From Takakia lepidozioides (lineage: Eukaryota; Plantae; Bryophyta): a stretch of DNA of 64,000 nucleotides. A program made the position numbers and the translations under genes. The DNA lies in assembly GCA_030704615.1 (NCBI GenBank), contig CM060731.1, positions 16,430,001 to 16,494,000 of the forward strand, read 5' to 3'. Positions 3,787 through 57,205 of the stretch are shown in pieces; position 1 is the stretch's first letter; every line of letters starts with the position of its first letter. The notes under the pieces are model-generated. The model saw nothing but the letters and a program-made list of their open reading frames with translations, was not told where the DNA came from and ran no database searches.

Positions 3787-3789
3787 ACT

Positions 3790-34700: not shown

Positions 34701-37630
34701 AACTTTCTATTTTTTGGTCATGGACTTTCATGGAGCAGGATCTGTCGTTTTTGGTCCACTCAACCCTGCAACTGCCCCAGTGGGAATGGGTAATGGTTGA
34801 AGAAGGCCGTAAGGTCGATGTCGTGGTCCCTTCGCTCTAGCACACGTGTCGCAAGATTTCATAAATTCTTTCACGAGTTTCCACATCTGCGGCCACCAAT
34901 AGTCCCTGGATATCAATTCCATTGTTTTGTAGAAGCCGAAATGTCCTGCAGCCGGAAAATCATGACATGTTTGAAGAATTTGCAATCGTGTAGGTCCTGG
35001 AGGTACACAGAGAAGTCCCTTGAAATAAAATAAGTCATCTTTGAATTTGAAGTCGTTTGTAACATGTGGGTTGTCTCGAGGTCGATTTAATTGACTTCGT
35101 AGTGTCGTAGCAAATTGGTCACTCTTCAGTGCTTCCTAAATCTTCTTTATAATCTCTGCATCATCATAGCTGGATATGGATAGCATATTCAATTGGAGAT
35201 TTGTTGGTTTCAAGATGATGGATTTCTGTTGGTCAAAAGCTGTATCCCCTTCTTTTGGCGCAAGATACGATCGTCGAGAAAGAGCATCTAGTTTTCTTTG
35301 AAGATGTCCGGGACGATAGGTAATAACGAAATCAAACCTTGCTAGTAACATACTCCATCTCGCTTGACGTCGATTCAAAACACGAACACTCATAAAATAC
35401 TCGAGGTTTTTGTGATCAGTATAGACAGTTACCTGATGTTTAGCTCCCTCCAATAAATGACGTCACTCCTCAAAAACATTGATAATCGCTAGAAGTTCTT
35501 TGTCATGGATTTCATAATTGATCTCCGCAGCGGAAAATTTGCGAGAACGGAAACCAACAGGGTGGAGTCGGCCATCTGTACCGTATTGATAGAGTACCGC
35601 GCCAAGTGCAAAGTCCGATGCATCTGCTTCCAAAAAGAATGGTTTAGATGGGTCTGCATGTACTAATATTGGAGCCGTTGTAAATGTCTGCTTCAGCCTT
35701 TCAAATGCTTGGTCAGCCTTCTCGTCCCATACAAATTTGTCGTTCTCTGTGACTCGTGTCAATGGTGCAGCAATTTTGGAGTAGTCATTGATGAAGATTC
35801 TATAAAAATTTGTAAATCCCAGAAAACATTGTACATCTCAGACTGAAGTTGGTTTAATTCACTCGATGACAGTTTGTATTTTCTTCTGATCCATAAAGAC
35901 GCATTTGTCGGAAATAATGTAGCCCAGAAATTCGACCTCAGATTGATGGAAAAGACATTTTTCCAACTTGGCATATAGTCTTCTTTCTCTAAAAAAGTCA
36001 TCTAAAAATTCTCGAAAGATGTCATTCATCATATGTTGGAAAATTGTTGGAGCATTTGTAAGACCGAAAGGCATAACACTGTATTCAAAATGTCCATACT
36101 TTGTTCGAAAAGTTGTTTTCCATTCGTCTTCTTCTTTTATCCGTACAAGGTTATAAGCTCATCTCAAGTCAATTTTGGTGAAAATCTTCGTTCGTCCTAG
36201 TTGGTCAAGAAGCCCAGAAATCAGCGGCAACGGATAACGATTCTTAATTATGACTTTGTTGAGACCGCGATAGTCCACACACATGCGTAATGATCCGTCC
36301 TTCTTTTTCACAAACAAGATAGGCGCCCCCGTAGGTGATTTTGAATGTCGGATGAAGTTTTTCGACAAATTTTCATCAATGTACTCACGTAATGCAGCCA
36401 ACTCCGTTTGGGATAAGTTATAGATTGGGCCGAATGGTGGTTGGGCTCCTTCTTGTAATTCAATTGCACAGTCATAAGGTCGATGTTCTGGCAATATGTT
36501 TGCATTTTTCTTCTCGAATGCATCATTGAAATCTTGATATTGAGTGGGTAATGTCGAAGTACCTTTGTCTGTTGTGGTCTTGATCGGAGTCGCATAAAGT
36601 GCAAATGTCGCATCCTTTTTGGTAGCTCTCATGAAAGCTCTAGCTCCAAGGAATAGGGGTTGAATACCTTTGATATTTCTACATTTTTGTCTTGCAAAAA
36701 TCACCAGTCGATGTCAGGATTGTGAAGTCGAACCAGGGATGTCCAAGGATCACAGGATTCGTTGGAGACCGGATGATGTTGAAAACAATATATGATGCTT
36801 GATCTTCAAGCTTCACTTCAAGTGGTCGAATTTCATGGTCAAACATTTCCTGATGCTAACGGTCGTCCATCGATGACTTCAATGGGGCCGAGAGTTTCTT
36901 CTTTACGAGCGTTAAATTGTGTTGTTTCGCAAATTTTTTGTCAATAAAACATGTTGAAGCCCCTGAGTTCAAAAGTGCTTCTACAGAGACATCTCGATTT
37001 TGCACTCTGATTTTTACCGGAACTGTGAAGCAAGGTGCAGGGTCTCGAGGTAGAAAGAGACCTTTTTTTGGTGAGGAATTTGTGGTGTCCAGCCGCATGG
37101 TCCCTACTGTGACTGGACATCTTCGTTTTCCGACCTCCTCGTACACTTGAGTTGCGCCCCGAACTTTGAATCTTCTCTTATTGGGGCAATTTATTGCTAT
37201 GTGATATTCTTCTCCGCAATAGAGGCATAATCCATTCGAGCGCCGTCTTTGTTTCTTGTGGCGTCAATGGCTTGAATCGGACAGCATCAATCTGCATAGG
37301 ATCTTTATCGGATGTCTAATGGATCGTTGTGTTTGGTGCCATAGTAGCAGTGGCATGATGCGTCGTCGACCATCCAGATCGCTTCTCTTGACGTCTTTCG
37401 AACAAACGATTATCACATGTAATGACTTGGGTGATGAATTCGCTTAGTGTGCTCACGTTTGGCATTGTCAGCAACAAATACTTTACATCCTCATTTAGCC
37501 CACATCGAAAGTGACTAATGAGGCTCTTCTCATTCCAGTCGAGATCACACGCAAGTTGTTGAAATTCGACAGCATAAACGGAAGCAGGACGTGCTCCTTG
37601 TCAAAGATTTCGCATCTTTCGCATCGAGTC
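31757..37630 (-). mobile_element. Chromovirus Ty3/Gypsy retrotransposon, 5'-truncated, inserted into the Copia 5' LTR
   Basis: LTR 31757-32376 (TG...CA) with adjacent PPT; chromodomain EYEVDEVLDSR...YFVHWKGY (~33070-33170); GPF motif; integrase; RNase H (EADASDFALGAVL, YTDHKNL); RT ([11 protein letters not shown]); protease with D>N change (LLNSGAS); gag CLYCGEEYHIAINC. Confidence 0.93.
34032..34777. mobile_element. Non-autonomous TIR DNA transposon (MITE, possibly PIF/Harbinger-like) inserted in the chromovirus integrase
   Basis: AT-rich 746 bp that splits the LQPLPIP|GPW motif; imperfect TIRs gggtgaatgtagggttgattggaccaaaa and gggcagttgcagggttgagtggaccaaaa (reverse complement); TSD not resolved. 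Confidence 0.75.
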
Positions 37631-40420
37631 TTTTGAGAAAGATCAGGCCTCATTATCAGCCAGGCATCCCAGATGGATTGCCATGCCTTAGATCCAAATT
37701 TGGCAGATTTAGAAGGAAGCCCTTGGACCACCCATTTGAGTGAAGAAGGCCAGGGATGAGCTGTCGATGGAATGGAATCCATCACATGGTTCCTAACAAT
37801 TAGGCTCCAAGGAGCAGAGAGGTCCAAGAAGATTCTAGGCACCCATTTCGCCAAGAGAGCTATCACCTGAGCCTGGGGGTCAATAGTCCCCAGTCCACCA
37901 AACTTCATTCATCCGACGATTGTTTGCAGGAGATGAAGCACCCCAAAGGAAGTTACGTACCAGAGCCTTCATTTGCTTGATCATGACAGAGCCAGGAGAG
38001 TATGCCGAGGAACTGAAGCAAGAAGACTGGAGAAGGACTTGATTAACCACCAACGCTCTCTCTGTAATTGACAGGTGTGCGGAGCACCAAAAAGCCTGCC
38101 TGTCGTCGAGCCATACGAGGCCCAAGTCGCTACCCCAGGGTGCACAGTGCACAGCAGCTCCAGGATTTTGGAGTCGGGATAGAATACCCACAGATTTGCC
38201 CCAATCAATAGATAACCCCGAAGCCTCGCAGAAGGAATACATGACGTTCAATGCACTAGTGACGTTCATCAGGGAGGTGTTGTCAATCAAAAGAGTCGTA
38301 CCATCAGCGTACAGAGAGGCCTAGATCGAGTACAATGCACAGAGGGCATGAACCTGGGGACTGCCAATCCCCTCACACCGTCTATAGCTTCCAAAAATCC
38401 CAGTCCATCTGCAGCGATAATGAAAAGAAAGGGGGCTAGAGGGCATCCCTGCCTAACAGAACGGTAAAGGGGGAAGGAGGAAGACAACGCTCCATTCACC
38501 GCCACTCTACTAGAGGCAAACTGCAAGAGAATTTTCACCCAATTCAAGAAAGAGCCATTAATGCCTACTTTTTCAAAAGCCCCGAAGAGAAAATGCCAAT
38601 CTACATTATCAAAGGCTTTTTCAAAGTCTAACATAAGCATAGCCAACGGCTGGTTATTGATGTGGGCTTGATGCAAAGCCTCGTTGGCTAGTAATATATT
38701 ATCAAGTATCGAGCGGTTTTTAATGAGCCAGACTGCTCTGGGCGAATAATCTTCGGGAGCAAGGGTTGTAGCCTCATGGCTAATGCCTTGGCAATTATTT
38801 TGTAAACCGAGGAGAGAAGGGTTATTGGTCTGTAATTAGATATTAATCCCCTATCCCCTTTCTTATAGATAAGAGTTATCAACCCTTGCGATATTTGAGA
38901 GGGAAGGATCCCTTTGAGGATGACATCATTAGCCATGGCCAAGAAATCCCCACCTCTTCCTACCAGAGGATTTTGAAGAACTCAATCGGAATTCCGTCCA
39001 AACCTGGGGCTTTAAGAGGACTTAAACTTTCAATGGCCTGGAGGAACTCCATGGCTGAGAAGGGCTCAAAAAGCTTTGCCTGCTCTGCAGAGGAAATGAT
39101 AGAAGGGATAGCAGCCAGCACTTTAGCACGACTGGCAAAAAAGGATGGCTCCTTTGATTGAATAGGTTAGAGAAATAAACAGAGGCCACCTTAGTCATTT
39201 CTCTTGGAGTGGAAACCATTGAGCCTGAGGAGCCCCTTAAGGAGGCAATTGAAGTTGAAGTCTGCCTTTGCTTGGCTTTTTGGAAAAAGTATGCTGTCAT
39301 TTTTTCCCCTTTAAGGGACCAATTGACACCTACTTTCCGTCTGAGGAACTCCTCTCTACCATGCAGAAGCTCTCCCTGATTTTCTTTTGCCGTGTTGTAA
39401 GAGGAGAAGGTTTGGGGCCCAGCTGCCCTACATTCAATCCTACTCTGACATTGCGCCAGACACTTAAGAAGAGCTTTTTCCTTACGAGCTCTTTCAATGG
39501 CAACAACTCTAGATAATTTCTGAGCCATCATCCTGGTTTCGTGGAGCTTAGCTAAGAACCTTCAGGTAGGCGAGGAGTACCTATTTCCTGCCTCATTCCA
39601 AGAGCTAGCTAGCTGCCTTACAATCTCTTTAGACTTAAGCAGCATGGGGTTGAGCTTAAAAAAACTACGACCCTTGACGTAGGTGCCTGGAGCACTAAAA
39701 GTTACCTCAACTTGGGCATGATCAAAGTCTGGTAAAATTGGTCCCAGCGGATGGGGAGATGACCAGGTAATAGCAATTGGCGTGAAGTAAACTATATCTA
39801 ACCTGGTCATACAGAGGTCTGGAGGCTACTTGTTATTAAACCAGGAGAATCTCAAGCTATTACGTTCAGGCAAGGAGGCATCTATGAAGCCGACAGTGAA
39901 ACACAAGCTATCCCAAGCATTTTGCTCATCCATAGACAAGCTGACTGCTGCATCCCCAAAGCGGTCAGCAGCTAATTCAACCATATTAAAATCCCCCGCC
40001 ATGACCCAATGAGCAATCAACGGATGATCCAAGATCTTGATCCTAATGTCGTTCCAAAACACCGCTCTCTCAGAGGCCTGGTTCGGAGCGTAGATGTTAA
40101 TAAATCCACATATACCGAAAATAGAAGAGGCCTTGGTGAATGCACATTGCGCTCTACCTTGAGCCCAGATTTCCACATTGCTAAAGGATGGTGCTAAAGA
40201 AGGAGAGATGAGCACGGCAATACCACCACAAGTGTCCACAATCGTGGGATTCCACCACAGTTAGCAGACAACAAAGACGAAGCCCAACTTTGTATTCTTC
40301 TCCTTTTAGGAGCCGAGGCATCCGATCCTATCCCCTTGACATTCCTAGAGACAATGTGGTGAGGGCACCTTCTTCTTCCTCCTATTTCAGCCTGTTTTGC
40401 CATCTCATCAGACTCGGCCC
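37631..40420 (-). mobile_element. L1/Tx1-type LINE ORF2 (APE endonuclease + RT), frameshifted and truncated at both ends
   Basis: IVSRNVKGIG, INIYAPN, WVMAGDFNMV, RLDIVY...DHAQV (APE); NYRPITLLSSVYKIIAKALA, LDFEKAFDNVDW, VRQGCPLAPFLF, GGLGTID (RT). Confidence 0.9.
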
Positions 40421-41014
40421 TGAATTTGCAGCACTAGAGACAGGAGGGAAAGTGGTGGGATGAGAGCATTCAGGGGTTAGGAATTGCTTTAGTTTCTCTT
40501 CTCCATAGTCTTTCACCCTCTCTGTAGGCCAAAACCTTTCTGTAGGTGGAGGCAAGAGTCAGTCCGGGTTTGGGCTGGGGTTTCCTTGCAGGAGCGACAC
40601 TGTGGAGTGTTTTTGGTGTGGGGGAGTTGCTGTCTTGATTTTCTTGTGTTTGGATCCCCTCCACACCTGCATGCTTGACTGTGCGCCATGTTAGCTTTGT
40701 GTGGGCGCTTGTTTTCATAGGAGGTTGGTCCGGATTTGATCACCGGCCAATCCTAAAGTATGCTGTCGGTGGTGAGGCTGGAGTGATGACCAGCAAGACC
40801 ACCAGTGTTTCTTCTATGGTGAGGTTGGGTTGATGACCAGCAGACCAAAGGAGTGCTTGCAGTGGATGTAGGTGCAGGTACAAGTCTACGTTAGAAACCT
40901 ATTATTTTTGCTTGAACCAGTAGCCGCAACAGGTTCTCTACCCGGTTACCTTGTAGAAAGTGGGGATTAGAGACAGGTTGACAACCGGTTAGGTTGTGAG
41001 TTTTCATCACGGAG

Positions 41015-43585
41015 GTGCCACCAGCTGCTGAGGGGAGTACCGGTACGAGCACCAGCGATACTAGTGGGTACACAAGACGAGGTGTGCGGTTTAGGCCACT
41101 TTCACCTTTAGTGTCTTCTGAGGAAGGTTCAGACTCGGAGTCAAGAGGATTCTCGCCAAGGGTGCAAGTCATTTCCATGCCATTGTTGTGGGACACGATG
41201 GAGGAGATGTATGGAGCTACCAAGGGGCCACGAAGGTACTCTGGAGCTATGGGCACCATCGAGCTTGATGACTTCATACAAGAGTTTGACAGTTGGTGTG
41301 ATTTGCAGCAAATGCGCAATCCACAATTGTTTACGCCCTTTATGGCATGGAAGGGGCTATTCCAGCACCTTGAGGGGCCGCCCATGGATGATTACCATGA
41401 ATTTAGGCGGGGACATGCGGTGGAGATTGAGGAGTAGCGAGAGTATTGGTCATCTAACTATGTCTCAATCACTAGAGGCACAAGGGCAGCGGTGACACCA
41501 GCAGCTACACAAACATCTCCAACTACAAGCACTAGTAGTGGGACAAGTGGTACAGGAGCTGGCAAATCCACTCAAGCTCCTGCTGCAGCACCAGCACCCG
41601 TGCCTGCCTTTAACCCAGTTGTGGAGTTCTTCGAGGAGTTGAGGAGAAACTACCAAGGGATAAGGACAGAGAAATTGCGGAGCTTGCAAGAGTTCCAACG
41701 AAGGTCTACTGAGAGTTTGAGGGAGGCTTACAATCGCATGAGGCGCTTGATAAACATAATCCAAGGGGTTACAGAAGCTCAGGCAGTCCAGTTCTGGTAT
41801 GGGATCCGGGACAACGAGCTGAGGAGAAGGGTGCAGGATGCAACTCTCCTACAAGTGGACTAACCCACCTTAGCAAACATGTTTTTGCTGGCAGAACGGA
41901 TAGAGCTCAATATGGTGGAGGAGCGAGTGGTCGTGGTGGGGTTTGGTAAGGAGACACGACAAAGCGGGGCTCCTAGCCAACAACAATCACTACCCCAACG
42001 TGCTCAAGGCAACAAGGGGGCTCAGACAAAGCCCAGGGAAGGACAAAGAGGATCTCAATTGCAGAGGTCACTTCCTTCATTCTCAGGCCAACAATAGTTG
42101 GGTGTGACATGTTGGGATTGTGGAGGACCCCATGTTAAGAGAGATTGCCCAGAGAGAGGCAAAGGGCCAGCACAGGCACAACCTACACAACCACAATGTG
42201 GGCATTGTGACAAGTATAGGCATGAGGAGGCCCATTGTTATGACTTGCATCTTGAGCTACGGCTAGGCCAGTTCCAAGGGAACAATGGTGGCCGAGGACA
42301 AGGCAATGTAGTCCAGAGAGGTAGAGGAGGCAGAGGTCGCGGTGGAGGTCGTAACCAAAACCAAGGAGCACAGGGTCAGGGTCAAGGTCATGACCAAGGC
42401 ATGGTGGATAGACTTGCCCAGCTAGAGCAACGTCTTGCTGCCATGGCCACTACTCATGTTGCGCCAGCTCCAAGGCTTGAGGTTCAAGCCCTACCTACAC
42501 AACCTCCTATGCCTAGGGAAGATCAGATTTGTATGGGCTTCATGTGTGGAGCCGCACTTGCAAGGCCATTGCATGTATTGGACTCTGCTGCTGCTGTCAC
42601 TCGAGTAGCAACGCGTGCTCCTAAGCCACGAGGAGCGGATGTGGATTTTGATCCACAAAGGGGGGAAACAAGTCATCAGACAAGGCTTCCACAGTCCTTT
42701 ACATTGGCTGAGACAGTGCCACCTACGCCATCAATGGCACCCGCTCGCCCAAGTGTGTCAGAGGTAGAGCCACGAATGTCATTGGGGAGAGTTGGTGTGG
42801 CTCGGGAAATGCCAGTGGGTGGTGCTGCAAAGCAAGGTGCAGCCAGTACATTGTTGGGGGCGGCTATGGCGGTTTGCCAAGCTCCATTATTTGCAATGAC
42901 CATTGCAATGTCGGGGATTCGGCCAGCTGCTGTGTTCAGACTAGCAGCTAGACTATGTGAGAGTGGTGATGCATCGGCACTATCTGCGGAGATAGCAGAT
43001 ACGGTGCAGTCTATGGATGCTTTGGATTCGAGGGTGAAGTCAGCCACAGCCGCGCCATGGCAAGCAGCAGCTGCAAGGTTGCAGGAGTTGCCAGCTAGAC
43101 CAGTCATTGAGCGTAGTATGGTGACTCCTGGGGTAGTCCTGGTGGACAATCAGGATGGTGTGTTTCAGTTGGGTGGCCCAGCCGAGAGGAGGTATAGGCC
43201 ACTGCGGGTCTTGTTGGACTCGGGAGCACAACCATTGATGTTGGGAAGAGCAACAATTGCAGGCTTGGGCCCTACAGAGGCAGATTTGGAGCCTTGCCCT
43301 TTCCAAATTCAAACATCTTTGGGCGGTTCAGAGAAGGCACGAGGGATTACACGCCATGAGCTCTTCATTCGATTGCAGCTGGATCATCCAACGGACGGCT
43401 CAGTCATAAGAGCTAAAGCCATTGTTACGGACGCGATGTCTTATGATGTGCTTGTTGGTGGGGCACTGTTATCCCCATGGGATTCACTGTGGATTTTTGG
43501 GAGGAAATGGCATCCTATATGCCGGAATGGCAGTCAGGAGATGGCCGACGTGCACTGCTCCCAGTGCGGTTTATTGGGAATGTAA
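41015..43585 (+). pseudogene. Gypsy gag + aspartic protease (one frame, broken by C>T-type stops)
   Basis: ORFs 41015, 41492, 41879 and 42098 share one frame; CWDCGGPHVKRDC and CGHCDKYRHEEAHC knuckles; LLDSGA and YDVLVGG protease motifs. Confidence 0.85.
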
Positions 43586-43899
43586 CGGTGGATCATAGGA
43601 ACATGATGCCCACATTGGCTGCATTCTCAGGGGTGGTGGCTTGGGGTGGTGAACTCTTGGAGGGAAATAGCCATGCAGATGATAGGCCATCACCTGGTGA
43701 GGACAAGCAATTGGCATACAAAGCTGATTTGTTTCCTCATGTGTCTGTGCATAGTCCACTGTGGGGTACGGTTGGGAATTTGCATCGAGTAGCAGGCGAG
43801 TGTGTGTACCAAACTTGGCAGGAGGCCTTTCCATTGGTGAGTGAGGGGAGTTCAGTGACATCACTTGGACCTCCTGAGTTAGCTCATTTGGACACAGTG

Positions 43900-44890
43900 C
43901 CCATTACCTGGCAACCACCTGACTCAGGGATTTGTTTGCTAGACTTGTTTGGCAGCATGAGCACTAGGCTTATAGGAGTATTGCAAGCAGAGATTAAAGT
44001 ACGCAAGTACTTGTATGTGGAGAAGGATGAGATAGCTTGGCGTATTTCTATGCGCCACATCGCCTTGCTCACACACCAGTATCCTGAATTGTTGCCTCTC
44101 TCAGCAATTCAAGGGTATCAAAAGGCCTTGCCAGCAGACATTACCTTGCTGGGGGTGGATGATTTGGACCGGCATGGTTCCATAGACTTGGTGATAGCTG
44201 GATGGCCTTGCCAAGGACACTCTCCCACAGGTCATGGGAATGGCTTGCATGATGCATGATCGCATTTGTTTTGGGAGATGTTGCGAGTGTTGCGTGACTT
44301 GCAGGTGTGGCAAGTGCAACCTCCAGCTTACATCCTGGAGAATGTGCCTCTCATGGGGGATTCTTGGGCCAGGGTTATGGCCAGTATGCATCAGATTCGG
44401 TCATGGATTCGACCAGCTGTATTGTTGGATGCAGCTGCAGTGGGTTCACGGGCACATAGGCCTAGGTTGTGGTGGACCAATCTTACACCAACAGAGTTGC
44501 TCAAGAGAGACTATGATTCCATTCAACGGCCACCCAACCTCACGGTTGAGGGCATTTTGGACTAAGGAAGGCAACCACAGAGGGTGCGACATGATGACCA
44601 TCCACCTCTAGCAGTGGTAAATCGAGTAGGGCAGCCACGTGCAGTCTTGCCTACGCTCATGAGCTTTCCCTCATCTCATGCTTTTAGAGACAATGGTCCT
44701 GGGTTGATTTGGGATAGTGTGCTACAGCAATTGGTGGAGCCCAATGCGGATGAGCAAGAGCGGGCAATGGGATTTGCCACGGGCACTACAGCTGTGCCAG
44801 CTCTGTCAACGACATCACAATGCCAGGTGTTGGGTCAAGACATGGATCTCAATTGCTTGACATGGATCATTGGCTTGTGCATGGCTGAGC
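43900..44890 (+). pseudogene. DNMT3-like C5 cytosine DNA methyltransferase domain within the Gypsy polyprotein
   Basis: Motif I LLDLFGSMS (~43936), II YVEKD, III ADIT, IV IDLVIAGWPCQGHS (44200-44214), VI YILENV (44338), VIII DAAAVGSRAHRPRLWWTN, IX EQERAMGFATGTT, X QVLGQDMD. ORFs 43477, 44266, 44584 and 45265 share one frame, separated only by TGA/TAA/TAG stops. Confidence 0.92.
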
Positions 44891-46019
44891 AACGGAGATT
44901 GCAAGCATTAGCGGCTACTTCTACACTTCTATTGGATATTGCACCATCTCTGCCAACCGGGACGGTGGAGGCAGTGAGTGGGGGCGAGCACAGGATCATG
45001 GGGTGCAAACACCCATGGCAGATGTGGGATGAGATGCGCAAAGAGAGAGTCATTGGATCTCTCAAGCAGCAGTATGAGGAGTGGGGAGAGCCATGGACTG
45101 AGGATCAGTTGGAGGCCAAGGTGGCCAAGGTTTTTGAAGAGGTTGAGAATGTTTCTTGCTCATAGGATGTTCTTAAGGTGGCTATGGCGGGGCAAGTGGA
45201 GGCTACGCCACGGTCAGATTGGGTGGACAAGACCCAAGAGGTTGCTATCTAGCAACCAAATGATTTGTCTCCTACCTCCAAGCCTGGTGTACCCAAGGTT
45301 GCAGTCACTGAGGACAATTGGGAGCCAGATGTTGGACCTACAGTCATCGGAGGAGAGAAACGGAGGATCCAGCGATTTTTAAGGGCTTATAGAAATTGCT
45401 TTGCCTTCGGTTTGAAGGATTTGGGGAGTTTGATGAGTCAAGAGATTCGTATTGATTTCCGGTTACCACCAGTTGCCAATCAAAGAGGCTGACAAGCAAA
45501 AGACGACATTCTAGGGGATTGACCAACATGGGAAGGATTGCTTGTACCAATGGCGGTTCCTACCATTTGGGTTGAAGAATGCTCCTGCAGAGTTTCAGAG
45601 GGTTATGGATAGGATTCTTGCAGGGCTAGACTTCGCCCATTGCTACATTGATGATATCATCATCTTTAGTGCCACGGTTGTGGAGCATGAGAAACACCTT
45701 CAGGTGGTGTTTGAGCGTTTGAGGGCGCATGGATTGAAACTGCACCCTGGAAAGTGCAAGTTGTTCCACGATCAGATTGAGTATCTAGGCCACATGATAT
45801 ACCTTGGAGGATTGGGTGTTCAAAAGACGAAGGTGGAGGCCATTGCACGCATTCCACGCCCCATCGATGTTAGCAGAGTTCGTGCTTTCATGGGGTTGGC
45901 AAACTATTATCGACGGTTTGTCAAGGGATTTAGCAGCATTGCAAAGGCTCTTACCAAGTTGACCAAGGTGGGTCAGGAGTGGCAGTGGGAGGAGGAGCAG
46001 GAGGAAGCCTTTGAGGAAC

Positions 46020-46980
46020 TGTCGAGCGGCTTTTACTCACCCATCCCTTCGTTATCCGAGGCGGAAACTCCAAGATAGAAGAGTTGGATATCTCTAAGCA
46101 CTCAGCCCGCTCAGAACAATCAGTCATGACCTGCAGCTAGTGAATCTTGGTTGTGCTTCCTATTTGTATTCCTTCCTGCCTTCATGTTATCAATTTACCT
46201 TACCGTGTATACTGAAGCATTAGATTGCTTCAGTATCTACTAAGTTCCAATTAATCATGCATTCATTCCACATTCTCTCGTGTCTCTCTACACAGTATGT
46301 TTGTATCGATTCAGTATCGGATTAAGATTAATCATGTATCATGCCTATGCCATGGTGTCTCTATTCTACCCTACTGTATAATTTTACAGCTTGCAATGAA
46401 CTAAGCCTCATTCAAGTCATCATCTCCTCTTCACTGTTTCCGCTCTCCGTTACATCTCCTCATCTCCTAAACAAGTCGCCCTCCTCCAGAAGTGATCCCC
46501 TTCATGTTGCCGCTCTGCCTAATCTACCCGCAAGCTGTTCTAACCACCTAACTAACTAACCGTCACCCCTGAAGTAACATGTTCCCTCTGCAGATGTTGT
46601 TCCCACACAGTCGTTCCCTGTTAATGATAACTGTTCCCCATGTACTGTGACAGGCTGTGTCAAGCTGTGCCGAGCTGTGACTGGCTGTGTAAAGTTGTGT
46701 CGGGTTGTGTGAAGCTGTGTCGGGCTGTGACTGGCTGTGCAAAGTTGTGTCGGGTTGTGTGAAGTTGTGTCGGGCTGTGACTGGCTGTGCGAAGCTGTGT
46801 CGGGCTGTGTCTGGCTGTGATAGACTGTGACGGGCTGTGTAAAGTTGTGTCGGGCTGTGTAACCCCCCTAAAGCCTGCTCCTGCCACCCCTAAGGCTCCT
46901 ATTGGTCTCAGTCTGCGTAAAAATTAAGGGTACCCCATAGAACCCATAAAAGCGTCTAAGTCCCAAGCAGCCCTCTAACA
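46020..46980. mobile_element. Solo LTR of an unrelated family inserted in the RT-RNase H junction
   Basis: TG...CA termini with a perfect 5-bp TSD GGAAC (46015-46019 and 46981-46985); the host frame resumes EELK/RLTSAPIL. Confidence 0.88.
46645..46862. repeat. 10-bp-unit minisatellite (ctggctgtga / cgggctgtgt / aaagttgtgt variants) inside the solo LTR
   Basis: About 20 tandem decamers, read directly. Confidence 0.85.
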
Positions 46981-48255
46981 GGAACTCAAGGTTCGATTGA
47001 CTTCTGCGCCTATTCTGAGGCAGCCTATTCGGGGGCGGTCTTTCCAGCTACATACGGATTGGAGTATGTTGGGGATTGGAGCAGTGCTCACACAGGTGGA
47101 TGATGAGGGAAGAGAGTTTGTAGTGGCATATGCTAGCCGCTCGAATAATGATGCCGAGGCGAAGTATAGTTCCTATGAAGGGGAGTGTCTAGTTGCAGTA
47201 TGGGCAGTGGCACATTTTAGATGCTACCTCTATGACAATCTCTTCACCCTTGTCACGGATCACCAACCATTGAAGTGGTTGATGGAGTCAGACAAGCTTA
47301 CAGGGAAGCTTGCACGGGGTGCTAAGGATATACATGAAGATGCAGCAGTGTTGGCCTACCTTTGTACTAGAGAGACAGCAGCCAGTGTGACTACTAAGGA
47401 GAGAGATCGGATCCTACAACGAGCCAAGAGGTTCAAGTGGGAGGGGACTCACCTACTCCGAGTATGGGAGGATGGACGAGTGAGGATTGTGCCTCACCCA
47501 ACACAACGAGTGCGATTGGTATGCCATGCCCATGAGGAGTTGGGACATTTTGGGGTGCGGCGCACTCATAGTTTGCTGCAAGGACAGTATTGGTGGCGGG
47601 GCATGCACATGGATGTGCAACAGTTAGTGGCAAGATGCATGGTGTGTGATAGAGTGCGGGCTTCTTTCAATGCCCCTACTCCACAATTGCATCCTTTACC
47701 CATTATGGGTTTGGGCTATCGTTGGAGTCTTGACTTCGTAGGCCCATTGTCACTAACTATTCGCCATAACAAGTATGTGCTGGTGATGGTGGAATATTTC
47801 TCCAAATGGATTGAACTGGTGGCATTGCCTGACAAAGCAAGTGAGGGGGCTGCATATGCATTCTTAGATCAAGTGCTTAGCCAATTTGGTGCTCCAGCCG
47901 AGGTACTCACGGACCAGGGGAGAGAGTTCTTGGGGGAGTTTCAGGCTTTGTGTGAGCCCAACACCGAAACACATTGGGGTACGCCACTATACGTGGAGGA
48001 GGAAATCGGCCAAGTGTTCGGCGTTTCCATCCTGGGGACTATGTGTATCTGTAGCAGACAGCGCCTGCAATCTTGGATGTCACAGCAAGTCGTGTGATTC
48101 TAAGGGTCCGGGAGGTGTTGCCTTCAGGAGTGTTGATTCTGGAGGGTCGAGATGGCATGGTATGGAAGGACCATGTGCGCAATTGTGCACCATGTCACCT
48201 TCCACATGTGGATGGGATGATAGATCCCAACCTTGCAATGGTACCTGCAGGGTTG

Positions 48256-48408
48256 CGTTGCATGCTATGTGGGCATGCTGGTGGTGCCACGACCATGTTG
48301 GTGTGTGACAAATGCTCAAGGGGGTGGCACATGGGATGCTTGACACCGCCACTTGAGGAGCTTCCTAGTGGAGAATGGTTGTGTCAACGATGCCTTGGAC
48401 AGAGGTAG
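48256..48408 (+). other. PHD finger at the C-terminus of Gypsy integrase
   Basis: CMLCGHAGGATTMLVCDKCSRGWHMGCLTPPLEELPSGEWLCQRC has the canonical C4HC3 pattern; also present, damaged, in copy A. Confidence 0.9.
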
Positions 48409-48665
48409 TGGGGCATGACAGTGGCGAGGTTGACAAGTGATCCAAGGTCTAGCTAACGGGAGTTCAATACCATGGACACCCAATTGAAGCCATGGATTGC
48501 AGGAAGACGAGTAACGATGGGGCTACTTTTGCACCCGGCCTCTTGATCTATTGCCTTCAGATACTGGGACTTGGGCAATTGATGACCAAGCGATGTTCTT
48601 ATTGGGATGGATACTTGTCAGCTATCCGGTGTTAGAGGGACCTAATCCCCAACTAGGGGGGCGAT

Positions 48666-49261
48666 TGTGGTATAGCTTTCTAGGATTGTGTGCTTAGATT
48701 GTGTGGTGGACAGCGATGTATGTTGTGGCACGATGCTTAGGTGCACGACAGCTGTCATGGTTTTAGTCATGGTTATCTAGAATTACCTACTTCTAGTTAA
48801 CTAGGACATTTTAGATATTTATATTTATATTTTGTGTGTTGGGACTTCATTTGGTCTCATATGCCAAGTAAGGTGTCGAGCCTCACTTGAGACATGGAGA
48901 TAGGTTTTCCCCTTGTGAGTGTTGAGGAGGCTCATCTTCTTGTAGTTGAGCCTCCATGAGCTTCTCTCACCCTCCATAGCTCTAGGTATTGAGAGGGAGT
49001 GTGTTGAGGGCTTTGTAGGGTGGATTCCTTTAGCAAAGGTGCCATTGGCTTGACTTAGTTTATGTGATAGAGTGGATTTCACTTGGAAGGACTAGGGCTT
49101 GTTCTTCATGTGATTGCTTCATGCTTTGAGAGCTTTCATTGTCTTCTACTTCTCTCATTTCTCATCTCTTATCCATTGTGGTATAGCTTTCTAGGATTGT
49201 GTGCTTAGATTGTGTGGTGGACAGCGATGTATGTTGTGGCACGATGCTTAGGTGCACGATA
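48666..49261 (+). repeat. 3' LTR of Gypsy copy B with two 85-bp direct repeats (48666-48750 and 49177-49261)
   Basis: Follows PPT ctagggggg; homologous to 3245-3786; terminal CA changed to TA. Confidence 0.85.
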
Positions 49262-49289: not shown

Positions 49290-52200
49290 CGTTGTTGCTC
49301 ACAAAAATAAACAAACCAAAAGGGAGAGAGGGTGCAGAAAAAATTAAAAAGATTGTACTCATAAGACGTTGTTTGCCGTAGCCTTGTGGCCATTGACCCC
49401 GCGCCCAGTTTGAGCGGAAACAAAAGGGACAGAACCTGCCTTTGTCAGGGGCTGACGTTGGTAGTAAGACTTATTAATCTGGGTTTTCCAGATATCCTCT
49501 AGAAATCCCTTCACACAAGCATCAATCTGCTGTGTGTGGTTTGCCCAATAACTAGGCCTCGGGAGGGCCTGGGCTTTTGGCTCAGCCTTGAAACTTTCAA
49601 AGTTGGTAAACAGAGGTATAGGCACAATTCCCTTGATAGATTTGAAAAGAGCATCTCTTTGGTGAGAGAACCCCGGACAATGTATCAGAAAATGAGTACT
49701 GTCTTCAGATTGCCCACACAACGGGCAATTGCACTCTCCCTTTGCTCTCTGCTTCTGTTTGTTGTTCAAAGGTAGGCTTCCTGCCCTGAGTTTAAATTTC
49801 AGTCTAGTGCCGAGAGTGGGTAGACCCTTGAGGTCACCCAAGATGTCCTCCCCCATGTCACTGACTATAAACAAGTTCAGGGAAGTTTTTTGCCTAACTT
49901 CATTTTCATCAGACAATCTCATGGCAACAGACATGGCTTGGGACACTACAGCCTCTAAGTCAGATTTATCAACCCATATTGCAGATCCGTACTCCAAGGC
50001 AGGTCTAATAATGCGACAAAGCATGGTTTTCTTAACCTCAGAGTTGACCCCTCTGCAGAAAAAGTTAAAAAGAGAGAGGGAGAGGGAAGATATTCATGTC
50101 ATGTCAAGACATGGACAAGACCCTACTAGGGTCAATGTCAATTAAAGACATAAACAGCCCATGACAGGGCACCATTTAACACTTCCAGTCTTGTCATAGC
50201 ACACCAAGTGACGACACCCGTTCGGTCATGATAAAACGGGGTGGGAGGGTGGGGTATATTCATAATCAGATTTTTGTCATGTACTCAAGTGACCCTCTTG
50301 CACAATATAAGTCAGATTGCAGCCTCAGATTATATCATCCATAGTTATCCATAAGATATGCATCATGCAAGATATCTTGGGCATATAAGAACTTCTTGCC
50401 ACATTACAGATCCAAGATATGTATACACAGGTACCTTGAAGTGATCCAAGACCAGCATTATGCAAGGTAGGTAAGAACAGCCTGCCCTACAACACATTCA
50501 GGGAATGTACAGTACACAGGCAACTAGAAGGACCAGTCTGCATTTCGGGCATGCCACCAAGTAAACTTCTTGGGCATGGCAAACCATATTGCAGCTTCAC
50601 ATTTGGCCAAATGTAAGTATCCCAAGGCGTGCATCATGCAAGGCCTTTTGGGTAGGTAAGAACAGCCTATTTTTGTACAGATTCAGGACCTGTGTACACA
50701 TGAATCTTGTTGGACCAGCCTGCAGTTAATCAGACTCCAAACATGCAACCAAGTGATCACATTGGGCATGACAAGACTGACTGCAACTTCATTCTTCATC
50801 ATGTACAGTTGCCCCAAGATATGCATCAAGTAAGGTATTTTGGCATGGAAGAAAGGCCTGCCCTGTCACAACATCCAGATATGGACACACATACAATTTG
50901 AGTGCCCAAGATCAAGCCCACTTGGCCATGATAAATCATACAATGCAGGTAGTTGTTCAGATGGCAAAATAAGGTAACTAATCACTGGCCAGAGTCCTTT
51001 AGAGCTTACTATCACTGGTTCCCAGGAGGCTAATGCCATGTTTTGCAAATAGAACCTCATTATGCTCCATTCCACATCAAATCCAGGTCTGAAAACGGCC
51101 TGTCATTGCCTTATCAGGCTGTCTTCTTTAAAAAAAACAGGCCTCCTCTTCCTTAGAGCCTAACAGCCACTGATGTCTTTACCCTTACACCATCAATCCT
51201 CTTTTAAGGCCAAAAATGTACCTAGTCTAAAAATCCACAGGCAAAGCTGTCAAAGATTCAAGACAGGGTAAGATTCACATGTTGTGCTGCAAGAGACAGG
51301 GCTGTCAGGCCGAAATGCTCCATCAACCGCAGCAAAAGATAAGTCAAAAGCAAGCATCATCATGTCAAACCGGGAGCAGGCGAGCTGAAATCGGGGCTGC
51401 GGGCAGCAGCAGTATGTTCATTTTGCTCACATCCTTATCTGCAGGCTCAAGAGAATTCAAAGCAAGTAGGGATCCTCACCTGGTCCCATCACAAGCCCCC
51501 ACAGAAACCAATGGGTTAGTGAGGATTGTGGAACCCCAGGTGAATCACAGACCCCTACACTTGTCATCGATGTCAACTAAGAACCTCAAAAACAAGAGAG
51601 AAAGACATGAAGTAAAAGGAACCCTAATCACCAAAAGCACCTTGAGCGATTGGGGAAGGTAACTGTGCGCCATCGCCATCGCCACCAGCAAGCCACCTCC
51701 AGCACAGCTAAGGAGAAGCGAAGCATACAAATGCTAGGTTTAAGAAGGGAGAGAGGGAGATATACTTCCCCACATAAGCGCCGCTGCGAAACATAAAAGC
51801 CAGAGGAGTGAAAGAGACGATGCCATCACAGCGGGGTCTCCCGCCTATGAGAAGAGACAAGACGCCGCCATTGCGCATCCCCAGGAGCTCGTCCGGCATG
51901 GGCACGAAGCAGCAGACAGGGTAGCAGCAGAGCTCAGACGCCATAACTCTCAGCCCGCGACCTCAGAAGCACGAGGAGTGTAGCTGACGGCGGGAGAGAC
52001 ACCCTAGGACAAAGCCCGATTTTTCATCCGCGGAGGATGAATAATCAACACCCTTTATCTCGAAAACCCGATGGATGTCATCCGTTAGCTAGGTTTAAAC
52101 AGTAGATTATAGGGTAGGGGTTAGGGTTTCACCCTGACAGGTAATTCATCATCCCCTAAGACAAGCCTCATCCAGTATGGAAAAAAAGGCATAAAGGAGG

Positions 52201-55200
52201 AATATAACGAATTCAAATCCTGGTATTTTTCATCCGGCATGGATGGAAAAATTATAGATAGGATGCCAGTGTCACAACCCCTACAGAGGTAATTCCTCAC
52301 TCTCTGGTGACTCATTTGGTATAGATGAAAGTCAATAAAAGAGGAATGAAAAATTATAGACCTTTTTTAGAGGTTTTTTAGTGTTCACCCAGGTAATTCT
52401 TCCGGTATGGACAAAAAAACTTTATAGGGCGTGTGAAAACACTGTTTAGAGTCCATCTGGTATAGATGGAAAAACATGGAAAAGAACACTGATGCAACCG
52501 GCCAATTCCGAGGAGGGAGATAGAGGGAGAGAGGGGGCAACAAAGAAAAAACAAAAAGGTGGGGGGGGGGGGCTTGACTGAGCAGCTGCTACTCAGACAC
52601 TCCCCCCCTCCCCAACTTCCTCTTTTTCTTTTTGTTTCCTAATCTCTCCCTCTAACTCCCTCTCTCTTTCCCTCTCTCTCCCTCTCTCCCTCTCCCTCTA
52701 TAACTCTTTGGATTTCATCTGGCCTTAACCTTTTGAGGTTATTTAGTTTTTGATCCCAACCTTTTTCATCCAAATCTGGATGATATTATTATAGGATGAT
52801 GAAACTTAATGTACAGAAAGCTTGGTTTACCATCTATTTCTTTCATCTAAACTGGATGAACTACATGAATAATGGTTACCTATTTTAAAATCCAAGAGAT
52901 AATAAAACTACCATCATAAATGATGGCAGTTATTAAACCTAAGCCTATACCATAACCCTAAAAGATACCTTTTTATTGGATGTTATCCATTGACAAAGTG
53001 CTTCTCTTGATAAAATGTGATTTTCATCCACCCTGGATGAGAAATCGGGAAGTTATGCCCTAAGCACGCCAACACATTTCACAGCACTGAACTCGTGCTT
53101 CAGTGAACCTTGATGATGCGCCGCGTAAACCTGCTCCCTGCTGCTACATGGTACTCGTGATGGCTGGCTCTTGGGATGCGCATTGGCGGTTAGGCAAATT
53201 CATCTCTGGCAGACGACAAAGCGATGATCGCTTTGCTCAGAAACTCATGGTTCTTTATTTTGCAGCGGCGCTTTTACTCCTCGTTGGGAAGTACTCTATC
53301 CCTATTTACATGTTGCTCTCTTTTTGTATGAGCCATTCTATATCTGTGAACGCTTCTACTTTGATTGCGTTCTGTTGGAGACGATCTGTTGGACGCCATG
53401 GCGCAGGGCATACCACAAACACTCAAGGTTTTTTGAGTTTACCATTGCTTGAATTGTGATCTGTACATGCTTTAGAATTCAACACTGACATGGATAGCAA
53501 CTGTGAAGACCTGCCACTCACCTGCTGCATCCTCACTAACACACATCGCTATGTGGTGGTTTTTGGGACGGGCACAGGTGAGGGTCTTCACTTGTCTTGA
53601 TTTCTTGAAGCTTGCAACTCCTGTTCTTGCAAATGTGGATTCTGCTGCTGCCTAAGCTGCTGATGCCATTTGCTGTTTCAAACTGCCACCATGCCGCTTC
53701 AGACCTGCTCCAAGATGGCTCCAATGAGGATCTGTTTCTCTCCTTACCCCTGTTTCTGGTTTTTTACAACCACATTTGCATGTGTAGGAGTTAAGCAATG
53801 AAGGGTATAAGGGTAGAAAATAGCAGTTATTACTCTGACTGCTTTGATACTTGGCTCTGAAATGAAACTTCTTGGTATGACTCTGATGGATCAAAAGGAT
53901 AGGCTTTGATAGATAACACACATTCTTCAAGGCCCTCATATCATTTTGGTTTCATGGCTTGATAACAAACAGGGGTTTCTGAGCTGCTCTTTCACCTTGG
54001 CAGAGCTATTAAAATACCATTCCAGGCCTATACCTGCTTAAGGGGGCTCAACCCTGTTGTTTCTTCTTCCTTTTTAAGAATCTTGCTTGTATCTTGGTTC
54101 TAAAACATCAACTTCAAACCAAACCTGCAATCTGGTTTTTGAAATGAGTTTGAAATGAATTTTTGAGATGATGGTGCAAACTACGGTGCTTTCATGATAT
54201 GACTGACCTGGAATCCCACCCTCCCACCCTGTTTTTTCAGAGACCCTGAAATGTAATGGGGTATTCAAATGAGATTGTAAACATGAAAGGGAATGTTAGA
54301 TGGTGCCCTGTAAAGGGCTGTTTTGTCTTTCAATGACAATGACCTTAGCGGTCTTGTCCATGTCTTGACATGACATGTATATCTTCCCTCTCTTTCGTGC
54401 TGCTCACCAAAAAAAAAACCCACAGAGGGAAAGAGGGGGTAGAAAAAGTTAATAAGAGAGAGAGAGAGAGAGAGAGAGTGGGAAAATATTCATGTCATGT
54501 TAAGACATGGACAAGACCAACTAGGGTCATTGTCAATTAAAGACATAAACAGCCCATGACAGGGCACCATCTAACATTTCCAGTCTTGTCATAGCACACC
54601 AAGTGACTCCACCCATTCAATCATGATAAAATAGGGTGGGAGGGCGGGGTATGTTCATAATCAGATTCCTGTCATGTACCCAAGTGACCCTCTTGCACAA
54701 TATAAGTCAGATTGCAGCCTCAGATTACATCATCCATAGTTATCCATAGGATATGCACCATGCAAGATATCCTGGGCATATAAGAACTTCTTGCCACATT
54801 ACAGATCCAAGATATGTATACACAAGTACCTTGAGGTGATCCAAGACGAGCATTATGCAAGGTAGGTGAGAACAGCCTGCCCTACAACACATTCAGGGAA
54901 TGTTCACACATGCAACTGGAAGGACCAGCCTGCAATTAATTACACTTCGGGCATGCCACCAAGTAAACTTCTTGGGCATGGCAAGCCATATTGCAGCTGC
55001 ACATTTGGCCAAATATAAGCACCCCAAAGCGTGCATCGTGCAAGGCCTTCTGGGTAGGTAAGAACAGCCTGTCATTGTACAGATTCAGGACCTGTGTATA
55101 CAGGACTCTTGCTGGTCCAGCCTGCAGTAAATCAGACTCCAAACATGCAACCAAGTGATCACTTTGGGCAATTTGAGTGCCCAAGACCAAGCCCACTTAG

Positions 55201-57205
55201 CCAAGATAAATCATACAATGCAGGTGGCTGTTCATATGGCAAAATAAAGTAACTAATCACTGGCCAGAGTCCTTTAGAGCTTACCATCACTGTTACACAG
55301 AAGGCTAATGCCATGTTTTGCAAATAGAACCTCATTATGCCCCATTCCACATCAAATCCAGGTCTGAAAACGGCCTGTCATTGCCTTATCAGGCTGTCTT
55401 CTTTTACAAAAACCAAACCTCCTCATCCTTAGAGCCTAATAGCCACTGATGCCTTTACCCTTACACCATCAATCCTCTTTTAAGGCCAAAAAAAAGAGTA
55501 CGTAGTCTAAAAATCCACATGCAAAGCTGTCAAAGATTCAAGACAGGATAAGATTCACATGAGTGTTGCATGAGAGAAGGCTGCCAGGCCGAAATGCTCC
55601 ATCAACCGCAGCAAAAGATAAGTCAAAAGCAAGCATCATCATGTCAAACCGGGAGCAAGTGGGCCGAAATCAGGGCTGCAGGCAGCAGCAGTATGTTCAT
55701 TTTGCTCACATCCTTATCTGCAAGCTCAAGAGAATTCAAAGCAAGTAGGGATCCTCACCTGGTCCCATCACAAGCCCCCACAGAAACCAATGGGTTAGTG
55801 AGGATTGTAGAACCCCAAATCACAGACCCCTACACTTGTCATCGATGTCAACTAAGAACCTCAAAAACAAGAGAAAAAGACATGAAGTAAAAGGAACCCT
55901 AATCACCAAAAGCACCTTGAGCGATTGGGGAAGGTAACTGTGCGCCATCGCCATCGCCACCAGCAAGCCACCTCCAGCACAACTAAGGAGAAGCGAAGCA
56001 TACAAATGCTAGGTTTAAGAAGGGAGAGAGGGAGATGTACTTCCCCACATAAGCGCCGCTGCGAAACATAAAAGCCAGAGGAGGGAAAGAGACGATGCCA
56101 TCACAGCAGGGTCTCCCGCATGTGAGAAGAGACAAGACGCCGCCATTGCGTATCCCCGGGAGCTCGTCCGGCATGGGCACGAAGCAGCAGACAGGGTAGC
56201 AGCAGAGCTCAGACGCCATAACTCTCAACCCGCGATCTCAGAAGCACGAGGAGTGTAGCTGACGGCGGGAGAGACATCCTAGGACAAAGCCGGATTTTTC
56301 ATCCGCGGAGGATGAATAATCAACACCCTTTATCTCAAAAACCCAACGGATGTCATCCATTAGCTAGGTTTAAACAGTAGATTATAAGGTAGGGGTTAGG
56401 GTTTCACTCCTTAATTAGCAATAATTAAGGGTAATTAAACAATTCTCCAGTGCCATCATAAGCTGCTTTTTTCATCCGGTTCAGATGAAAAAAGTAAATA
56501 GGTTCATTTATTTGGAGAAGGTCCATCAGCAGGATGAAAGAGCAGTACACATCATCCAAGGCAACGGTTTATCATCCTGACAGGTAATTCATCCTCCCCT
56601 AAGAGAAAGCCTCATCCAGTACAAGAGAAAGCCTCATCCAGTACGGAAAAAAATGCATAAAGGAGGAATAAAACGAATTCAAATCCTGGTATTTTTCATC
56701 CGGCATGGATGGAAAAATTATAGATATGATGCCAGTGTCACAACCCTTACGGAGGTAATTCCTTATTCTGTGGTGACTCATCTGGTATAGATGAAAGTCA
56801 ATAAAAGAGGAATGAAAATTTATATGCCCTTTGTAGAGGTATTTTAGTGTCCACCCACGTAATTCTTCCGGTATGGATAGAAAACCTTTATAAGGCGGGT
56901 GAAAACACTATTTAGAGTCCATCTGGTATAGATGGAAAAACATGAAAAGAACACTGATGCAACCGGCCAATTCCGAGGAGGGAGACAGAGGGAGAGAGGG
57001 GGCAACAAAGGAAAAAAAAATGTGGGTGGGGGAGTGACCGAGCAGCTGCAGCTGCTGAGCAACAGTTGCTCAGTCACTCCCCCCCCCCCCCCCCCCCCAC
57101 ATTATTTATTTATTTATTGGTTTCCTGATCTCTCCCTCTCACTCCCTCTCTCTGTCTCTCTCTATCCATCTCTCCGTCTCCCTCTCTCTCCCTCTCTCTC
57201 CCTCT
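49290..57205. repeat. Large foldback / tandem structure: arm U1 (49290-~52700, forward), diverged inverted arm (~52750-54395), arm U2 (~54400-57205, forward, high-identity copy of U1)
   Basis: 50054-52690 closely matches 54440-57205. 53062-54395 aligns in reverse complement to U, e.g. gggatgcgcattggcgg, gcagcggcgctt, caggtgagg, and 54293-54392 versus 54470-54580. Confidence 0.8.
49353..50053 (-). mobile_element. 5'-truncated LINE 3' fragment with C-terminal CCHC zinc finger
   Basis: IIRPALEYGSAIW and CPLCGQSEDSTHFLIHC; 20-bp TSD tgcagaaaaa(a/g)ttaaaaaga at 49333-49352 and 50054-50073. Confidence 0.85.

Follow-up and report, generated by a model that had tools for sequence, protein, structure and literature searches.

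The window, a stretch of 64,000 nucleotides from the moss Takakia lepidozioides, contains a decayed Gypsy element that carries, judged by its sequence, an unpermuted DNMT3-like C5 cytosine methyltransferase domain (positions 43900–44889, + strand). The copy is dead, and it almost certainly represents a family of DNMT-carrying Gypsy elements of green plants. Taken as a whole, the observations are best explained by a dead copy of a Gag-protease-DNMT Gypsy lineage with a leaky stop and self-methylation, a reading that we hold with fair confidence.

The translation of positions 43477–45492, with X at stop codons, matches PF00145 at 42.5 bits (cut-off 22, E = 7e-11). The methyltransferase motifs follow each other in canonical order, with motif I at 43942, PCQ at 44206–44214, ENV at 44338, HRPR at 44455 and motif X at 44830. 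The domain is flanked by a protease motif (43214) and by the reverse transcriptase (RT) N-terminus (45334–45459), and shares its frame with the latter. DNMT3A provides the best solved relatives of the window domain (E = 2e-7), with HhaI/HaeIII and DRM2 behind, and a 24-row family profile matches DNMT3A at E = 2e-19 versus 2e-8 to 9e-7 for DRM-type chains. A natural relative (P0003) shows a DNMT3A-like fold (Foldseek E = 2e-16). The initial annotation, made from the letters alone, had described canonical unpermuted motifs including PCQ and ENV, a place between protease and RT in one frame with the RT N-terminus, and a DNMT3-type domain not permuted like DRM; the profile search of the read-through translation and the structural matches agree with it on all of these points. 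Meanwhile, the copy has decayed. Four stops interrupt the frame (TGA 44257, TAA 44563, TAG 45163 and TAG 45250), the first two of them inside the domain, and compared with the family motif I carries G>S and G>R and motif X carries A>D. In a cross-subfamily protein alignment, 13 of 73 loci have a stop at the 44257 codon, and 0 of 72 have one at the 44563 codon.

The other Gypsy domains surround the methyltransferase on the same strand. The gag region (41198–42184, +) has premature stops and a zinc-knuckle-like region after it; it matches the N-terminus of Marchantia Mp4g09160 at 58% and PF03732 weakly (E = 8e-4). The aspartic protease (43139–43477, +; DSG at 43217) matches PF13650 at E = 0.19 here and more clearly in relatives, and one frameshift near 43465–43475 puts the protease and DNMT frames in disagreement. 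The RT (45253–46019, +; PF00078, 87 bits) has lost about 308 nt at 45458 relative to copy A, a second family copy in the window, and the final TGA (45490) comes after this deletion. RNase H and a DDE integrase follow (46981–48267, +; PF17917, PF17921, PF00665), with deletions at 47317 (~264 nt) and 47956 (~369 nt), and the integrase C-terminus bears a PHD finger (48259–48393, +; PF00628, 44.1 bits, cut-off 24). No chromodomain was found.

Two protein searches returned 194 and 56 matches. The named ones belong to Marchantia, Calypogeia, Riccia and Sphagnum, in line with the annotated idea that a land plant hosts a Gypsy lineage equipped with a DNMT3-like domain; no K. nitens sequence is among the named matches. 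Relatives of the window element also exist in Closterium, and 61 pattern matches among viral contigs gave no relative of the family. Between 53 and 72 distinct contigs of run X1, which may be the source sample, cover the listed DNMT positions 44184–44756; their read depth is no measure of copy number and was not taken as one. In run X8, guessed to be RNA, a related 911-nt contig lies over 43349–44052 and says nothing on transcription either way. For the domain neighbours, we compared 80 metagenome loci (the best 80 of 107), which come mostly from few metagenomes and one subfamily.

The 3′ part of the window element has an unusual repeat layout. A polypurine tract (48655–48664, +), kept in related loci, stands immediately 5′ of repeat B1 (48665–48750, +), which by sequence comparison is 86 nt long and ends in CA. 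The B-A junction (48747–48756, +) reads GACA-GC-TGTC, a palindrome of both element-end sequences with a 2-nt spacer. Repeat A2 (48753–49175, +) starts with TG, ends with CA and lies flush to B2 (49176–49261, +), which is the right end of the element and is identical to B1 at 85 of 86 nt. Copy A (1–3786, +), 87–96% identical and extending from RT to the end, has B-A-B as well; it begins inside RT, so its DNMT region falls outside the window.

Four complete related loci (L029, L049, L056, L077) show the arrangement A-coding-B-A-B. Gag-PR-RT-RH-INT order, polypurine tract, TG...CA ends and target duplication are those of Ty3/Gypsy elements, with ends and duplication read in relatives; two matching terminal LTRs are not present, as A stands at the left and B-A-B at the right of the four complete loci. 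The duplication is 4 bp in seven two-ended elements (exact in four, one mismatch in two, left end damaged in one). All seven related loci that have B-A keep the 2-nt spacer, and related loci share the internal CA-nn-TG palindrome at this junction and the flush A-B joint. The following A-B is missing in 10 of the 17 loci having a 3′ B, and A-coding-B forms are common. We did not see a tRNA primer site; in its place is an LTR-complementary stretch, as in Tf1/Tcn1 self-priming (PMC6317226). In 7 of 13 loci, a stretch of 10–17 nt that follows A1 pairs with a single site within A, and shuffles gave 0–3 of 200 in a biased test, on seven loci picked after seeing the 13.

Two-LTR circles are usually regarded as dead ends. 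Retroviral integrase can cleave a palindromic LTR junction (PMC1905944), and LTR-junction circles can feed integration (PMC4372172). We give an even chance to the idea that the repeat anatomy reflects integration from a two-LTR circle. In the DIRS/Ngaro replication model, template switches rebuild the repeats, and a comparable route into linear DNA already ending in A and B would require neither a ligated circle nor an internal cut. The A-coding-B-A-B layout is typical of DIRS elements, as described in PMC5890265, and the abundance of A-coding-B forms fits this route too. However, the polypurine tract precedes B1, A2 is flush to the following base as an end-joined B-A-coding-B-A predicts, and the 2 nt separating CA from TG are compatible with a staggered cut by integrase, so that we consider template switching the less probable of the two, though a serious contender.

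The stop codon at 45250 has a different character from decay. The initial annotation took all stops in the frame for decay, which fails for this TAG: 61 of 61 sequences alignable at the DNMT-RT junction, a sample that excludes the window's own subfamily, have a stop at the corresponding position (39 TAG, 22 TAA, no sense codon). With near-duplicates removed, the junction stop is found in 42 of 42 sequences, and no other codon of the 121 is a stop in more than 7 of 42; an independent RT anchor recovers it in 54 of 54, and it is present in four subfamilies. The cross-subfamily protein alignment had a stop in that column in 12 of 41 loci, which we read as misregister and which the junction and RT-anchor counts supersede. 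The window linker is longer: 23 codons separate stop and RT anchor, versus 17 in the other loci. TAG 45250 is very probably a programmed stop and not decay. A conserved stop between DNMT and RT means that DNMT ends ORF1 (Gag-protease-DNMT), and the placement "inside pol" in one open frame has to be revised for the land-plant clade, where DNMT belongs to the Gag-protease ORF.

The stop and its context, TAG CAA CCA (45250–45258, +), agree exactly with UAG-CAR-YYA, the TMV-type readthrough motif (PMC2754532, PMC2194720). L020 and L078 also have the exact context, whereas the main moss subfamily has CAA CCC; this sequence follows the stop in 51 of 61 loci and is one base off CAR-YYA. Published values are about 10% for TMV-type readthrough and about 20:1 for the gag:pol ratio of retroelements. 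Folding of 90 nt after the stop in five sequences, with no shuffle control, gave no common structure and no conserved hairpin. Marchantia, Calypogeia and metagenome proteins end 98–100 residues after motif X, and a separate RT-RH-INT-PHD protein of 1073 aa exists (P0348). Readthrough is the probable way past the stop to RT-RNaseH-integrase-PHD. It is doubtful that the stop is a true end, with the downstream part expressed through an internal promoter, splicing or re-initiation at a nearby ATG; the methyltransferase would still travel with Gag in that unlikely case. An ATG does stand two codons past the stop in the main moss subfamily, CAA CCC falls short of the full consensus, and in Candida Tca2 a promoter is located where gag, stop and pol meet (PMC2194720). 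But the ATG is missing in the window, L020/L078 and L048, and the phase and CAA-CC are kept across subfamilies with saturated synonymous sites.

Based on these features, we propose a life cycle. ORF1 would encode Gag, protease and the DNMT3-like methyltransferase and end at the conserved stop; low-level readthrough of this stop would probably yield RT, RNase H, integrase and PHD finger. The methyltransferase would thus enter particles in quantities like those of the capsid protein, and we predict that it methylates the new DNA of the element prior to integration. The RNA would self-prime beside repeat A and the plus strand would start at the polypurine tract; the linear B-A-coding-B-A product, joined end to end, would give the flush A-B joint. 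Integrase would then cut the internal CA-nn-TG palindrome at B-A and insert both new ends, generating A-coding-B-A-B. In this scheme the PHD finger would serve as a reader of target-site chromatin. We speculate that a copy thereby arrives pre-methylated and escapes the host response to naked DNA or damps its own expression.

The cDNA is, by a small preference, the likelier main methylation target. The CpG observed/expected ratio of the element (0.34–0.53) is similar to the values for LINE, Copia and host exons nearby (0.19–0.57), which gives no hint of additional self-methylation, and CpG/CHG depletion does not single out the element in this window comparison. Between copies A and B, transitions amount to 0.11 per CG, 0.09 per CHG and 0.04 per CHH site, which host methylation would equally give. 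That the enzyme mainly acts on chromosomal DNA, whether integrated copies of the element or its insertion site, or that it is no more than a nucleic-acid binder, appears unlikely. The PHD finger suggests chromatin contact, self-restraint and insertion-site effects are among the options listed in PMC5890265, and the lack of special CpG loss points the same way; against a chromosomal target, the Gag-protease fusion would place the enzyme in the particle with RNA and cDNA, and the kept catalytic residues speak against mere binding.

A sister clade (Hariotina, Haematococcus) has DNMT between RNase H and integrase, and in the algal-type relatives P0399/P0509 no stop interrupts the DNMT-RT frame. 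We compared an RT tree of 72 rows (68 of 153 RT-bearing proteins, namely all with DNMT or PHD, all of at least 45% identity and 14 others, plus four DNA translations; quick search, midpoint root) with a DNMT tree of element domains only, four short domains being left out. Separate captures of DNMT3 by bryophyte, charophyte and chlorophyte elements seem rather improbable. They would account for the domain occurring in two places, ahead of RT in some elements and between RH and INT in others, separate capture is documented among DIRS (PMC5890265), and the trees contain neither host DNMT3 nor the Klebsormidium sequence; yet both trees split by architecture with one exception (P0165), the C-terminal PHD is present in both types, and the domain occurs in 23 of the 150 best RT representatives. 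Only tentatively do we suggest one ancient lineage from chlorophytes to mosses and liverworts with obligate integration from two-LTR circles, which the DDE integrase would open at the internal palindrome, and a PHD finger that would pick the landing site. In land plants this lineage would have shifted its DNMT3 to the Gag side of a leaky stop, giving every particle sufficient enzyme for dense methylation of the circle ahead of any contact with host chromatin.

Within the family, the domain is common and not a one-off: among metagenome loci with enough flank, 48 of 56 have the protease upstream of it and 44 of 46 have RT downstream. The sequence comparisons indicate purifying selection on it, with dN/dS of 0.11–0.22 between subfamilies (or saturated dS with pN of 0.23–0.26) and 0.40–0.71 inside the decayed subfamily; the initial annotation had called for this check. 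The catalytic Cys is kept in 124 of 127 sequences, the ENV Glu in 153 of 163, and the motif VIII Arg residues in 144 of 168 and 150 of 165. A rough count finds a stop-free domain in only 3 of 60 loci. That a host DNMT3 retrocopy once landed in a dead element, as the bad decay of the window copy might suggest, is refuted by this family-wide presence, constant position and selection, and no DUF3444 appears in Pfam scans of the window domain and its relatives.

The basic design is known from KnitGypsy-Dnmt3 of Klebsormidium nitens, which has a Dnmt3 domain in Gypsy (de Mendoza et al. 2018, PMC5890265). As described there, it shares with the window family the Gypsy domains, an intronless unrearranged Dnmt3-like domain, purifying selection and A-coding-B-A-B; it differs in having Dnmt3 in the Pol ORF, whereas the window family has a stop between DNMT and RT and a land-plant host. 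Compared by description, PHD finger, 4-bp duplication, self-priming match and junction palindrome do not appear in the KnitGypsy-Dnmt3 text. In yeast, the Klebsormidium domain produced no methylation, a result that its authors call inconclusive (PMC5890265). SymbioDIRS-Dnmt3 of Symbiodinium also combines a retrotransposon Dnmt3 domain with split repeats and two domain orders, but it is a tyrosine-recombinase DIRS element with CG methylation in yeast (PMC5890265), unlike the DDE-integrase window family. Host PpDNMT3a/b have an unpermuted DNMT3-type catalytic domain in non-flowering plants and differ by a C-terminal DUF3444 (PMC6453930), in contrast to the window domain fused to Gag-protease. 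DAM-LTR/EpiLTR are Gypsy elements with a DNA methyltransferase and a chromatin reader, yet use an adenine methyltransferase or DNMT4-like domain and a chromodomain (bioRxiv 10.64898/2026.05.21.726589); this preprint names 'streptophyte Gypsy-DNMT3'. The accessible texts of PMC12344493, PMC11982613, PMC9915684 and the Chlamydomonas v6 preprint hold nothing beyond 'streptophytes' and a PHD-bearing Gypsy-7a. In the open-licence literature we found no account of a land-plant family (supplementary figures of PMC5890265/PMC12344493 and preprint supplements may include members), and neither the conserved stop nor the B-A junction and the predicted circular integration step in print.

Methyltransferase-bearing Gypsy elements thus extend into land plants, including Marchantia, where family ORFs sit in annotations as hypothetical genes. 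Marchantia methylation mutants exist, so that what the enzyme does for the element becomes testable, and the conserved stop allows a definite prediction of enzyme dose. Judging by its repeats, this may be a DDE-integrase element with circles as normal substrate, and A-coding-B-A-B elements would escape LTR finders that need two matching LTRs.

Other sequences lie within and beside the window element. A 961-nt TG...CA insert (46020–46980, strand undefined) with a 5-bp duplication GGAAC (joint 46013–46980) is likely a solo LTR of another element. No A repeat was found upstream of the window copy, which lacks A1, the 5′ twin of A2; at the expected place of A1, its 5′ side adjoins a decayed L1-like non-LTR element (37700–40880, −; approximate borders) with an RVT_1 match (E = 1e-14) and endonuclease-like sequence. 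A neighbouring PIG-M exon has its best named match in Physcomitrium, at 60%.

The DNMT3-like domain of the decayed Gypsy copy lies within 43477–45492. The translation in the initial annotation was reproduced and, with X at the four stops, matches the PF00145 profile at 42.5 bits (cut-off 22). Motifs I, IV, VI, VIII and X follow the canonical order claimed there. The DNMT3-type assignment also holds, as DNMT3A is the top solved relative by sequence, by family profile (E 2e-19; DRM-type and bacterial enzymes among solved structures reach 2e-8 or weaker) and by the predicted fold of a natural relative, P0003 (pLDDT 75; Foldseek against DNMT3A E 2e-16, TM 0.77 on target). In the window element, gag, protease, RT, RNase H and integrase flank the domain, and a PHD finger scores 44.1 bits.

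Protein searches brought up 194 near-length relatives and 56 longer ones; those that are named, from Marchantia, Calypogeia, Riccia and Sphagnum, reach up to 66% identity. Among the best 80 of 107 metagenome loci, those with enough flank place protease upstream of the DNMT domain in 48/56 and RT downstream in 44/46. One metagenome locus clusters with a Sphagnum fallax protein in the DNMT tree. Many distinct contigs cover the domain in run X1, which may come from the window's species. The dN/dS between subfamilies is 0.11–0.22, or dS is saturated; inside the decayed main subfamily it is 0.40–0.71. Relatives, dN/dS and the PF00145 match exclude a one-off insertion, absent selection and an absent profile match. 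The methyltransferase-bearing Gypsy element is real and family-wide.

The interrupting stops had been ascribed to decay only, and the domain had been placed inside pol; neither statement survives comparison with the family. With nucleotide probes, a stop codon occupies the DNMT-RT junction (45250 in the window) in 61/61 sequences and a sense codon in 0/61, a count that covers 60 loci and the window, the sole sequence from its own subfamily, and leaves out 20 loci unaligned at the junction. After near-duplicates were removed, the stop is present in 42/42, and other codons reach at most 7/42. ‘*QP’, or a decayed version, appears in every locus translated across the junction. The first stop upstream of the RT anchor lies at 17 codons in 52 loci, 21 in locus L048 and 23 in the window. 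Liverwort and metagenome proteins terminate at a distance matching the junction stop, and a separate RT-RH-INT-PHD protein is found among the relatives. On the other hand, the protein alignment across subfamilies is off register at the stop. Judged from these sequences, the TAG at 45250 is not a decay product, and the junction stop is very probably programmed.

Readthrough is the probable way past this stop. The window context, TAG CAA CCA, matches the CAR-YYA signal, which gives about 10% readthrough in TMV (PMC2754532). Most loci carry CAA CCC, one base off the signal, with an ATG behind; this ATG is absent in the window, L020, L078 and L048. Whatever the bypass, the methyltransferase lies upstream of this stop, as part of the Gag-protease ORF. 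Its output would therefore exceed that of RT and integrase; the gag:pol ratio is reported as ~20:1 in retroelements (PMC2194720). Fusion to Gag would carry the enzyme into the particle, so that new element DNA is the predicted target, a reading we slightly favor. De Mendoza et al. name chromatin at the insertion site and self-restraint, which are rival readings (PMC5890265); base composition of the element does not discriminate between the proposed targets.

As described in PMC5890265, KnitGypsy-Dnmt3 of Klebsormidium shares domains, selection and repeat layout with the window family, whereas its DNMT lies in the Pol ORF and ours outside it. Because of this feature, and with K. nitens compared by description only, we regard the window element as working like KnitGypsy-Dnmt3 but set apart as a variant. 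Later papers, including bioRxiv 10.64898/2026.05.21.726589, use the name ‘streptophyte Gypsy-DNMT3’. In the literature searched, figures and some supplements aside, we found no published description of members from land plants or chlorophytes, of the junction stop or of the B|A junction.

Among more distant relatives, protease-DNMT-RT forms a single run in P0399, P0509 and Closterium proteins, the latter being gene models that are possibly spliced. A large sister clade is ordered RT-RH-DNMT-INT-PHD; in its chlorophyte members, from Hariotina (P0161, P0167, P0185) and Haematococcus (P0510, P0513), the DNMT3-like domain follows RNase H and precedes integrase. Architecture divides both the RT tree and the DNMT tree (no host DNMT3s included), which fits a single old DNMT3 capture followed by a move of the domain; different lineages may instead have captured DNMT3 separately. 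Beside its main element, L049 holds two older, more distant DNMT-then-RT copies (2261–4546, minus strand, and 17576–18686; ~35–40% identity), which points to several waves of the family within one genome. In two other Gypsy polyproteins, P0462 and P0484, a Dam adenine methyltransferase separates protease from RT, and a PHD finger comes after RNase H; both are likely the DAM-LTR kind of bioRxiv 10.64898/2026.05.21.726589.

The terminal repeats are split into A and B. Both window copies close with B-A-B after the polypurine tract, four complete relatives read A-coding-B-A-B (9–11 kb, TG...CA), and three further relatives read A-coding-B. Target duplications of 4 bp in these seven two-ended relatives are exact in 4/7, one mismatch off in 2/7 and unreadable in 1/7. 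At the B|A joint, two bases separate CA from TG in 7/7 loci and both window copies, and the joint is palindromic in the window; A2 joins flush to the base just after the polypurine tract. No tRNA primer site was seen in the elements examined. In 7/13 loci, 10–17 bases past A1 are complementary to one site within A, the kind of pairing described for self-priming elements (PMC6317226). Ordinary LTR replication of the element RNA would yield B-A-coding-B-A; joining its ends and cutting one B|A palindrome would give the observed A-coding-B-A-B. For A-coding-B, seen in 10/17 loci with a 3' B, three origins are conceivable: a circle with one repeat, cleavage at both joints, or B-B recombination at a later stage. 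HIV integrase can cleave palindromic circle junctions (PMC1905944), and circles with such junctions can feed integration (PMC4372172). We give the circle route an even chance; DIRS-like template switching is a rival source of the layout.

The window copy is dead: premature stops interrupt it, the frame shifts past the protease, DNMT motifs I and X carry substitutions, three deletions show against copy A, a 961-nt solo-LTR-like piece is inserted (containing a 10-nt tandem array, 46626–46865), and the left repeat is missing. At its right end (49262 onward, minus strand), a poly-T run and downstream sequence directly adjoin.

Elsewhere in the window, we notice a Copia pol (RVT_2; 28244–30965, minus strand) and, judged from the sequence itself, a second Gypsy-like fragment (36000–37740, minus strand). 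A unit of about 4.3–4.5 kb is duplicated in tandem at 50122–57185 (92–98% identical), and a ~318-nt unit occurs three times at 60555–61394 with the conserved core GAATG(G/T)CGTTGACG. The PIG-M gene is 60% identical to Physcomitrium and ≤57% to other named plants; by this single gene, a moss host is likely. A single open frame of 478 aa (21586–23022, plus strand) with weak MCM P-loop and lid matches may represent a diverged gene of the MCM family or one large exon. Two plus-strand open frames, 57593–58681 (362 aa) and 61394–62263 (289 aa), have no Pfam match.
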